From: an uncultured Pirellulales bacterium
Lineage (GTDB): Bacteria; Planctomycetota; Phycisphaerae; Sedimentisphaerales; SM23-30
Direction: 5' to 3'
Length of the DNA: 64,000 bases
Assembly: GCA_964482555.1 (NCBI GenBank)
Contig: CAYZXY010000010.1
Coordinates: forward strand, 2,135 to 66,134
A program made the translations under genes and the position numbers. Of this stretch, positions 35,139 to 60,473 are shown piece after piece (within the stretch, counting starts at the first letter, position 1; each line of letters begins with the position of its first letter). The notes below the pieces were generated by a model, which saw nothing but the letters and a program-made list of their open reading frames with translations, was not told where the DNA came from and searched no databases.

Positions 35139-35243
35139 TATACCCAAAGGGTATGAGAATTCCCGCCAGGGCCAGTCGTAAAGGCATTGCCCGCACATAG
35201 TCATGTTTTGACAAAACGGGAATTTTCAATTGGAACGAATATA
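35139..35243 (+). repeat. R105 interspersed repeat, subtype B
   Basis: TATACCCAAAGGGTATGAGAATTCCCGCCAGGGCCAGTCGTAAAGGCATTGCCCGCACATAGTCATGTTTTGACAAAACGGGAATTTTCAATTGGAACGAATATA. It starts 1 nt after the rpsS stop. Confidence 0.92.
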
Positions 35244-35283
35244 ATAAATGACAGTAAGCCTGGTGATAGATAGGTGAAAGCTT

Positions 35284-35853
35284 ATGTTAAGCGGTGAAAA
35301 ATTAAAGAAGTATCGCACGGACAGCGGGAAGACCGTAGAAGAGCTGGCAGAACATTTGTTGCCAGCGGGTTTGGAAGACGGGGAGCGTGACGTTCAGCTT
35401 AAGACGGCCGTTTCCAGCGTTAAAAACTGGGAACGCGGTCTTTACAAACCCCGGCCGACATCAAGAGAGTTGTCGCAGCTCGCACAAACACTGGGTGTCG
35501 AGCAATTGGATTTGCATGTATGGAAAGCCTCGCATAATCATTGTCCCATGGCGCCGCGGAAGGTGCGGCTGGTGGCAGATCTGATTCGCGGCCGGCATGT
35601 GCAGGATGCTCTGGATGTGTTGAAGTTTACGAATAAGCGGGCGGCCGTAATGGTGGACAAAGTGCTTCGCAGCGCGATTGCGAATGCGGATGAGAACGAA
35701 GCGAATATTGAACGGCTGTTTGTGTCGGAGTCGCGTGTGGATGAGGGCGGCGTTCGTCAGGGGACGCGTCGCTGGCGTCCGAAAGATCGCGGTCGGGCGG
35801 TGCCTTTCACCCGGTTGTCGAGTCATATACATGTCAGTGTGGATATGGAATAA
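35284..35853 (+). CDS. rplV: 50S ribosomal protein L22 with an in-frame ~75-aa N-terminal XRE-type HTH extension
   Basis: The C-terminal ~113 aa are canonical L22 ([41 protein letters not shown]...[22 protein letters not shown]). The N-terminal part reads [22 protein letters not shown]...[37 protein letters not shown] lies 7 nt upstream of the ATG at 35284. Confidence 0.85.
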   Translation: [189 protein letters not shown]

Positions 35854-35881: not shown

Positions 35882-36571
35882 ATGGGTCAGAAGGTATCGC
35901 CAATAGGATTCAGAACCGGAATTACCCGCGGCTGGAAAAGTCGCTGGTTTGCTCCGAAGGCGGCTTACGGAACGTTTCTAATAGAAGATCAGATGATTCG
36001 TAAGTTTGTGGATAACCGTCTTAATAAGCAACCTCCGTATGCCGCAGTTGCTAATATCGATATAGAACGGACGCGTGATGATGTCCGTGTGACGCTGCAT
36101 ACCTCGCGGCCGGGCCTGGTAATCGGACCTAAAGGCGCCGAGATCGAAAAGCTGCGAGAAGCGATAGAAGACCTGATCAACCGCAAGGTAACCGTTAACG
36201 TGATGGAAGTGAAGACGCCGGAGCTTGATGCCCAACTGGTTGCGGAGGCGATTTCGGAGCAGCTTAAGCGTCGGGCGGCATTTCGCCGGGTGATGAAGCA
36301 GCATTGCGAGGCAGCCATGGCCAACGGCGCCAGCGGTGTGAAGATTATCTGTTCGGGTCGTCTGGGCGGGGCGGAACTGGCTCGCTCGGAGAAGCAGATT
36401 CTGGGCAGCATTCCGCTGCAGACGTTGCAGGCGGATGTTGATTACGGATTAACTGTGGCAGTAACGACTTATGGCGCAATTGGAATCAAAGTCTGGATTT
36501 TTAAAGGCATGTTTTACGATGCCAGGCAGGAACAAGAGCAGGAGAAGGGCGGCCAGAAGTATAAAAAGTAG
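35882..36571 (+). CDS. rpsC: 30S ribosomal protein S3
   Basis: MGQKVSPIGFR.G....W.S.WFA with KH and S3-C domain sequence. Confidence 0.97.
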   Translation: MGQKVSPIGFRTGITRGWKSRWFAPKAAYGTFLIEDQMIRKFVDNRLNKQPPYAAVANIDIERTRDDVRVTLHTSRPGLVIGPKGAEIEKLREAIEDLINRKVTVNVMEVKTPELDAQLVAEAISEQLKRRAAFRRVMKQHCEAAMANGASGVKIICSGRLGGAELARSEKQILGSIPLQTLQADVDYGLTVAVTTYGAIGIKVWIFKGMFYDARQEQEQEKGGQKYKK

Positions 36572-37146: not shown

Positions 37147-37250
37147 TATACCAAAGGGTATGAGAATCCCCGCCAGGGCCAGTCGTAAAGGCTTTGCCCG
37201 CACATAATTGTGTTTGGATAAAGCGGGAATTTTCAATCGGAACGAGTATA
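37147..37250 (+). repeat. R105 interspersed repeat, subtype B
   Basis: TATACCAAAGGGTATGAGAATCCCCGCCAGGGCCAGTCGTAAAGGCTTTGCCCGCACATAATTGTGTTTGGATAAAGCGGGAATTTTCAATCGGAACGAGTATA. It ends 7 nt before the rpmC ATG. Confidence 0.92.
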
Positions 37251-58134: not shown

Positions 58135-58239
58135 TATACCCAAAGGGTATAAGAATTCCCGCCAGGGCCAGTCGTAAAGGCTTTTCCCGCACATATTTAC
58201 GTTTAGGAAAAATGGGAATTTTCTATCGGAACGAGTATA
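58135..58239 (+). repeat. R105 interspersed repeat, subtype B
   Basis: TATACCCAAAGGGTATAAGAATTCCCGCCAGGGCCAGTCGTAAAGGCTTTTCCCGCACATATTTACGTTTAGGAAAAATGGGAATTTTCTATCGGAACGAGTATA. Confidence 0.92.
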
Positions 58240-60368: not shown

Positions 60369-60473
60369 TATACTCGTTCCGATTGAAAATACCCGTTTTG
60401 CAGGAACGTAACTATTTTCGGACAAAGCCTTTACGGCTGGCCCTGGCGGGAATTCTCATACCCTTTGGGTATA
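60369..60473 (-). repeat. R105 interspersed repeat, chimeric (B-type 5' and centre, A-type loop segment)
   Basis: Minus-strand reading: TATACCCAAAGGGTATGAGAATTCCCGCCAGGGCCAGCCGTAAAGGCTTTGTCCGAAAATAGTTACGTTCCTGCAAAACGGGTATTTTCAATCGGAACGAGTATA. Confidence 0.92.

Follow-up and report, generated by a model that had tools for sequence, protein, structure and literature searches.

The window analyzed here is a 64,000-nucleotide (nt) stretch (positions 2,135 to 66,134 of contig CAYZXY010000010.1, assembly GCA_964482555.1) from an uncultured bacterium deposited as Pirellulales and placed by GTDB in the order Sedimentisphaerales of the Phycisphaerae. Its gene for ribosomal protein uL22, rplV, encodes a protein of 189 amino acids in which a degenerate domain of the XRE/Cro helix-turn-helix (HTH) type, as judged by predicted fold, precedes a complete uL22 core. 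On the strength of sequence conservation, it is close to certain that this is a real, translated, and conserved fusion. Most likely, the extra domain belongs to the ribosome surface as a lineage-specific part, and we estimate the probability that it acts as a constitutive ribosome-surface module, through contacts with rRNA or protein, at roughly 60%. The open reading frame (ORF) is the organism's only rplV: there is one L22 match in its own genome, as there is in each of 40 relatives.

Fold of the two-domain protein

An initial annotation, made from the sequence alone, had read residues from about 77 onward as canonical L22 and the preceding residues as an XRE-type HTH with an insertion, without a stop between the two parts. 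The uninterrupted frame is plain in the sequence, and both halves are recognized by domain profiles. The only Pfam domains in the protein are the HTH and L22. Ribosomal_L22 (PF00237) aligns at residues 82 to 186 over profile positions 1 to 103 of 104 (100.2 bits against a cutoff of 28; E = 8.8e-29), and TIGR01044 (rplV_bact) scores 98.1 bits against a cutoff of 73.65. The full-length protein was modeled with AlphaFold2 using an alignment of 111 full-length homologues, giving a predicted local distance difference test score (pLDDT) of 95.3 and a predicted template modeling score (pTM) of 0.84. The predicted core (pLDDT, 95) is an alpha+beta globular domain with a long protruding beta-hairpin. 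In Foldseek searches, the full-length model matches the bacterial L22 chains of many 70S structures, over the core only, with a root mean square deviation of 1.0 to 1.2 Å and template modeling (TM) scores of 0.93 to 0.96. In sequence and in predicted fold, residues 78 to 189 are a complete uL22 core.

The N-terminal domain (N-domain; residues 1 to 77) is recognized as an HTH. The whole protein scores 23.8 bits with HTH_3 (PF01381), just above the gathering score of 23, and residues 1 to 79 alone score 27.4 bits; the same segment reaches 27.0 bits with HTH_19 and 26.3 bits with HTH_31, both slightly under their own cutoffs. Modeled alone, the N-domain has a pLDDT of 92.9. Five helices are predicted (residues 4 to 14, 18 to 25, 32 to 50, 60 to 70, and 74 to 77), and the top Protein Data Bank (PDB) matches found by Foldseek are all of the XRE type: the N-terminal domain of CapH, BldD, C.AhdI, SinR, DdrO, and the 434 and P22 repressors. 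Target-normalized TM scores to XRE repressor domains are 0.68 to 0.82; the accompanying E values are modest because the domain is small. The residues that are invariant or nearly so in the family (M1, L2, K6, L7, L21, N48, W49, P56, P58, L66, A67, and L70) are determinants of the XRE fold. By its predicted structure, then, the region is a degenerate five-helix XRE/Cro-type domain, much as the initial annotation had proposed.

The proposed insertion within the HTH is also real. Between helix 2 and the NWE.G motif, the model has a six-residue loop (residues 26 to 31) followed by a helix 3 that is lengthened at its N-terminal end (residues 32 to 50). Part of the family has a seven-residue indel in this segment, and one genome has a larger indel. 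The N-domain lacks the tight turn that canonically links helix 2 to the recognition helix. Conservation across the family is low at the surface positions of helix 3 (residues 43, 44, and 47) and where helix 2 starts.

There is almost no linker between the two domains, as strand beta1 of uL22 starts two residues after the N-domain. A beta-bridge joins residues 2 and 78 in the model; this bridge and the high pTM suggest that the arrangement of the two domains is fixed (interdomain confidence was judged from pTM and DSSP only). Such an arrangement would fit the invariance of Met1-Leu2.

One further similarity concerns TniQ of type V-K CRISPR-associated transposons, the HTH of which (7oxd and 7n6i) gives the best matches of the N-domain profile to PDB sequences (E of about 1e-3). 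Both carry a W-E-R...P.P...E/D..LA pattern. We read these weak matches as probably generic HTH similarity and set a TniQ relationship aside.

Translation of the fusion and selection on it

The start codon of the extended gene is conserved. An ATG lies at the position homologous to 35284 in all 20 genomes of the family and at all 81 loci compared, and a purine motif resembling a Shine-Dalgarno (SD) sequence occurs at -16 to -5 in 52 of 81 relatives. The AGGTGA noted earlier before the window's own ATG is indeed present (Table 1). In the 20 same-family genomes, the protein begins with a conserved ML[SN]..KL, and in-frame stops lie 0 to 14 codons upstream. Differences in protein length (182, 189, and other values) are in-frame indels, in multiples of three, within the connection of helices 2 and 3.

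Selection acts on both parts of the gene. The proportion of nonsynonymous differences (pN) is lower than that of synonymous differences (pS) in 190 of 190 genome pairs, for the N-domain and for the core alike. In the two closest pairs, the ratio of nonsynonymous to synonymous substitution rates (dN/dS) is 0.23 and 0.13 for the N-domain and 0.04 for the core. These ratios indicate that the N-domain is under purifying selection and evolves about three times faster than the core. Judged from start-site and codon conservation, the gene product is a single two-domain protein translated from the ATG at 35284.

Distribution in the Planctomycetota

More than 100 full-length homologues (about 182 to 190 residues) were found among 5.8 billion clustered proteins and, where named, they come from Sedimentisphaerales, Phycisphaerae, or Planctomycetes metagenome-assembled genomes (MAGs). 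Recurrence of one architecture in more than 100 independent genomes puts the fusion far beyond chance. The complete architecture, free of stops, is present in 40 of the 41 relatives examined from its family and order. It is also encoded in the closed genomes of two cultured species, Limihaloglobus sulfuriphilus (AQQ72051.1; 182 residues) and Sedimentisphaera salicampi (ARN57654.1; 183 residues), where the proteins are deposited as "50S ribosomal protein L22."

We mapped the N-domain with two profiles, using coded labels (f9, f19, f26, and f116) for families. A profile of the full protein detected it in 16 of 16 Sedimentisphaerales (the window's own genome counted) and in 6 of 6 f19 genomes, the proteins of which are labeled as Phycisphaerales MAGs, and in none of 98 other Phycisphaerae. 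A profile of the N-domain only found it in 87 of 401 Phycisphaerae genomes (22%), namely, 63 of 64 Sedimentisphaerales plus f19, f116, and one f9 genome; each of the 87 carriers has one match, in an open frame of about 180 to 200 residues that is always rplV. In a sample of the phylum, 9 of 251 genomes carry the domain, all of them in the Sedimentisphaerales or the f19/f116 groups. The N-domain is thus kept in frame through the order Sedimentisphaerales and a second clade, which answers the concern, raised with the initial annotation, that it might be out of frame or lacking in relatives. The other Phycisphaerae (about 310) and other Planctomycetota (about 240) sampled do not have it. The f9 match (G576:C360:275-496) is a Sedimentisphaerales-like N-domain (E = 1.9e-25) at a contig end, in a genome that is 88% complete with 3% contamination, and is probably a misbinned contig.

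Evolutionary history

This distribution is unusual for a core ribosomal gene, as the domain occurs in two clearly nonsister clades. It implies about six independent losses, a second acquisition, or transfer of part of the gene. A tree of 11 concatenated ribosomal proteins that the operon encodes (1,469 columns; 13 Sedimentisphaerales, 4 f19, 22 other Phycisphaerae, and 8 outgroup Planctomycetota) recovers the Sedimentisphaerales as monophyletic with 100% bootstrap support and sister to families that lack the N-domain, and nests f19 in a different clade, adjoining other families that lack it. Forcing the carriers to be monophyletic costs 430 log-likelihood units and is rejected (approximately unbiased test, P = 2e-55). 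When f116 is added, it groups with f19 and f26 in one clade (Shimodaira-Hasegawa-like approximate likelihood ratio test support, 99), and f26 is without the N-domain. On our reading of the tree, a single gain needs about six losses, and independent gains or transfer need three events.

The N-domains of Sedimentisphaerales, f19, and f116 share the same boundaries and a common R.G[LMI]....A..A..NW segment, and they reach profile E values of 1e-11 to 1e-17; by these sequence measures, the three are homologous. Transfer of the whole gene is excluded because the L22 cores of f19 and f116 are of the local Phycisphaerales type (..GP.IKRF.PKDRGRAHPI), unlike the Sedimentisphaerales type. Recent transfer between the two clades is likewise rejected, as cross-clade identity of the N-domain is 0.29 to 0.37, just under the saturated within-order level of about 0.41. 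Such values neither support nor exclude an old transfer and, because they are near saturation, do not separate an ancient origin followed by losses from an old partial transfer. No free-standing donor or paralogue of the N-domain was found in the genomes of the class and phylum, each carrier having one match. In a library of 1.84 billion proteins, the strong single-domain matches are L22 fusions or their fragments, and the long matches that were scanned are generic proteins with HTH_3 in tandem, which reach their scores by summation.

Probable role on the ribosome

uL22 is a stoichiometric, early-assembling protein of the 50S subunit. It forms part of the wall and rim of the exit tunnel, and its globular domain occupies the solvent face next to the rim, an area where deformylase, methionine aminopeptidase, and other nascent-chain factors dock; the C-terminal helix of peptide deformylase docks between uL22 and bL32. 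Given this stoichiometry and placement, every ribosome of a carrier would display the HTH domain as a fixed surface module. A position beside the exit tunnel is inferred from the known placement of uL22. There, the domain would most likely contact rRNA or a protein partner at the 50S surface, either bracing the structure or offering a factor a place to dock. The family is moderately basic (median net charge, +3; isoelectric point, 9.5), with f19-type copies at +4 to +9, and this composition is compatible with nucleic acid (rRNA) contact.

Several observations weigh against a constitutive surface module. The patchy distribution means that a Phycisphaerae ribosome can do without the domain. The window's own copy has a net charge of -1, which is atypical for an RNA binder. 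An alignment of 23S rRNAs (four Sedimentisphaerales plus a partial copy from the window's own genome, three f19, one f116, three Phycisphaerae without the HTH, and Escherichia coli) revealed no indel common to carriers only. Finally, peptide deformylase has a similar C-terminal helix in 9 Sedimentisphaerales, 5 f19, 2 f116, and 16 genomes without the HTH. We accordingly dropped two specific candidates: compensation for an rRNA change, as differences in the variable helices, the H98 region among them, do not follow the presence of the domain, and covariation with peptide deformylase, the helix of which is present and alike with and without the domain.

These surveys also yielded observations of separate interest. 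The 23S rRNA of L. sulfuriphilus contains, near E. coli position 1871/1872, about 290 inserted nt that are seen in none of the other 11 aligned sequences and could be an intervening sequence or intron. The 23S rRNAs of f19 are short (2733 to 2768 nt), with variable regions trimmed or absent near E. coli positions 272 to 295, 350 to 360, 1414 to 1449, 1494 to 1533, and 1716 to 1741; the trimming is complete in two genomes (G102 and G065) and partial in a third (G109), and it does not track the HTH domain. Peptide deformylase (PF01327) was not detected in the window's own 97%-complete assembly, probably owing to an assembly gap, and there is exactly one in each of the 32 other genomes searched.

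An alternative is that the HTH keeps its binding to DNA or mRNA, and that free or ribosome-bound uL22-HTH regulates genes, for instance the S10 operon that encodes it, or serves to tether ribosomes to the nucleoid. In its favor, the domain passes the HTH_3 threshold, superposes on DNA-binding repressors, and belongs to a basic family, and autoregulation of their own operons by ribosomal proteins is well established (L4 regulates the S10 operon in E. coli). However, the six-residue loop and the variable insertion of zero to seven or more residues alter the geometry of the helix 2-turn-helix 3 unit, the surface positions of the recognition helix vary, and in the model the domain is welded to beta1 of uL22. 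The spacer between rpsS and rplV, the nearest possible operator site for rplV, ranges from 6 to 168 nt among 80 relatives, so that there is no fixed operator there (the region upstream of rpsJ was not searched). The lengthened and variable turn and the poor conservation of the base-reading positions suggest that the domain is probably not a sequence-specific operator-binding repressor, and the unconserved spacer length argues in the same direction. Overall, we consider such regulation or tethering unlikely.

A bolder proposal is that every ribosome of these bacteria carries a still-functional nucleic acid-binding or dimerizing HTH on its 50S surface by the exit tunnel, tethering DNA, mRNA, ribosomes, or a lineage-specific partner, and that the module was acquired twice or was moved between nonsister Phycisphaerae clades through lateral transfer confined to the 5' part of rplV. 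We regard this combination as rather improbable.

It is also conceivable that two isoforms are made, with a normal-length uL22 from an internal start serving the ribosome and the long form being minor or regulatory. The initial annotation had pointed to an in-frame TTG at 35509 as such a start. The codon at that position is GAT, and the in-frame TTGs are at 35506 (L75) and 35512 (L77). Shorter products (148, 155, 160, or 122 residues) have been annotated in relatives; these deposited annotations start at internal codons, which is why public records disagree about the N-domain. However, there is no conserved internal start between residues 66 and 88: at any one position, a start-capable codon occurs in at most 26 of the 81 loci that all have the upstream ATG, and few such codons are preceded by an SD-like motif. 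For Met89, an upstream SD-like motif is seen at only 1 of 81 loci, and initiation at this codon would remove beta1. Moreover, an N-terminal region that is untranslated or rarely translated would not give pN < pS in every pair or conserved fold determinants. A short ribosomal isoform is therefore quite improbable.

A cleaved or assembly-only pro-domain, which would help uL22 to fold or to reach the pre-50S particle and then be removed or become disordered, is very improbable. Nothing favors it directly, beyond the dispensability of the domain in sister lineages. Against it stand the compact, confidently predicted fold with its beta-bridge to the linker and the lack of a conserved cleavage-like motif at the boundary. 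The junction residues (..DL.VW.A.H) belong to the uL22 N terminus and are kept in relatives without the HTH, as is the nearly invariant W80 itself. That the fusion is an annotation or assembly artifact, or arose when an upstream HTH gene was recently, and neutrally, read through, has next to no probability; the window does come from a MAG, but the architecture recurs in closed genomes of cultured species and in more than 100 independent assemblies and is under purifying selection.

If the domain is a constitutive surface module, as we favor, it could change cotranslational processing in a whole order of anaerobic planctomycetes, since uL22 sits at the wall and rim of the exit tunnel, where nascent-chain factors dock.

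Gene context and features

The gene order in the window is that of the standard S10-spc cluster (S10-L3-L4-L23-L2-S19-L22-S3-L16-L29-S17-L14-L24-L5), with rplV in its canonical place between rpsS and rpsC. As the initial annotation stated, rplV lies downstream of a copy of a 105-nt repeat. Further copies were found by blastn at 37151-37250, 58135-58239, and 60369-60473, and those within the ribosomal protein operon lie 5' of rplV and 5' of rpmC. The rpsS-rplV spacer in the window (146 nt, against a median of 49 nt in relatives) is unusually long because the repeat copy sits inside it. In the core, the three-residue insertion VRQ is specific to Sedimentisphaerales, being found in none of the f19, f116, or non-HTH Phycisphaerae L22 cores aligned. 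Being located in the tunnel-lining hairpin, it may alter the constriction of the exit tunnel.

Table 1. Features of the extended rplV gene and its upstream region (window coordinates)
Feature	Position	Strand	Remarks and basis
105-nt dispersed intergenic repeat copy	35139-35243	+	blastn
Shine-Dalgarno-like AGGTGA	35272-35277	+	6 nt 5' of ATG; read from sequence
Extended rplV ORF, ATG to TAA	35284-35853	+	189 aa, open throughout
ATG start codon of extended rplV	35284-35286	+	
N-terminal XRE/Cro-type helix-turn-helix-like domain, aa 1-77	35284-35514	+	HTH_3, AlphaFold, Foldseek, dN/dS
Lengthened, variable helix 2-helix 3 connection, aa 26-42	35359-35409	+	Alignments, low per-column conservation
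7-aa indel within helix 2-3 connection, aa 36-42	35389-35409	+	In only part of the family
uL22 core, aa 78-189	35515-35850	+	beta1 (aa 80-87), globular alpha+beta domain, tunnel beta-hairpin
3-residue insertion VRQ, aa 157-159	35752-35760	+	First strand of uL22 beta-hairpin; alignment
TAA stop codon of rplV	35851-35853	+	rpsC starts at 35882

Comparison with known systems

The initial annotation knew of no DNA-binding-type domain on a core ribosomal protein. Our literature search agrees with this, as a full-text search, in which coverage of the literature was incomplete, found no paper describing a uL22-HTH fusion. The remark nevertheless needs qualifying on two counts: the HTH of EDF1/Mbf1 acts on the ribosome in trans, and full-length proteins of the present type have already been deposited as L22. 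The architecture thus appears to be visible in public databases (as sequences and as Pfam domain pairs) without having been described. Lineage-specific extensions of ribosomal proteins are already known; a complete folded domain of the transcription factor type on a universal 50S protein in free-living bacteria, by contrast, is reported in none of the papers or solved structures that we found.

Compared to other bacterial uL22 proteins, this one has the same core, the same place in the operon, and the same single copy, and it differs by 77 additional N-terminal residues that are predicted to fold as a domain in their own right. The N-domain is not covered by any solved L22 chain in the PDB, and the longest Foldseek alignments to extended L22s span about 134 columns. 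A curated precedent for uL22 fused to another domain is NCBIfam NF008917 (PRK12279), the "L22/unknown domain fusion protein." The extra part of that family is C-terminal and unrelated to the N-domain; our protein scores 49.2 bits against a cutoff of 526, with only the L22 part aligning (profile positions 11 to 106 of 311).

Relative to XRE/Cro-C1 HTH domains, the N-domain has the same predicted five-helix fold and keeps the motifs L..LR, G....LA, NWE.G...P, and L..LA.AL.V. It is distinguished by its longer and variable helix 2-3 loop, its N-terminally extended helix 3, and unconserved base-contacting positions, and its fusion partner is a ribosomal protein, not an oligomerization or sensor domain.

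The uL22c of spinach plastids is likewise terminally enlarged, with 89 extra residues in terminal extensions, and the plastid-specific domain contacts neighboring proteins on the 50S surface (PMC5071890, PMC5694952). Large terminal domains on uL22 are thus tolerated. In plastids, the extensions accompany rRNA remodeling (loss of H98), whereas no rRNA change was found to track the domain described here. The plastid extensions are not reported as an HTH.

A parallel in principle is EDF1/Mbf1 of archaea and eukaryotes, in which an HTH of the XRE class is likewise used on the ribosome and contacts rRNA. Its cro/C1 HTH is sandwiched between h16 and h33 of 18S rRNA, and MBF1 is absent from bacteria (PMC7486125). 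No MBF1 or EDF1 chain is among the matches of the N-domain profile to PDB sequences, and the two differ in arrangement. MBF1 acts in trans on the small subunit and combines an N-terminal MBF1/zinc-ribbon part with a C-terminal HTH, whereas the planctomycete HTH stands at the N terminus of a large-subunit protein, to which it is covalently attached. If our reading is true, the fusion would represent in bacteria, and in cis, what MBF1/EDF1 represents in trans: the reuse of a Cro-type HTH for binding to the ribosome.

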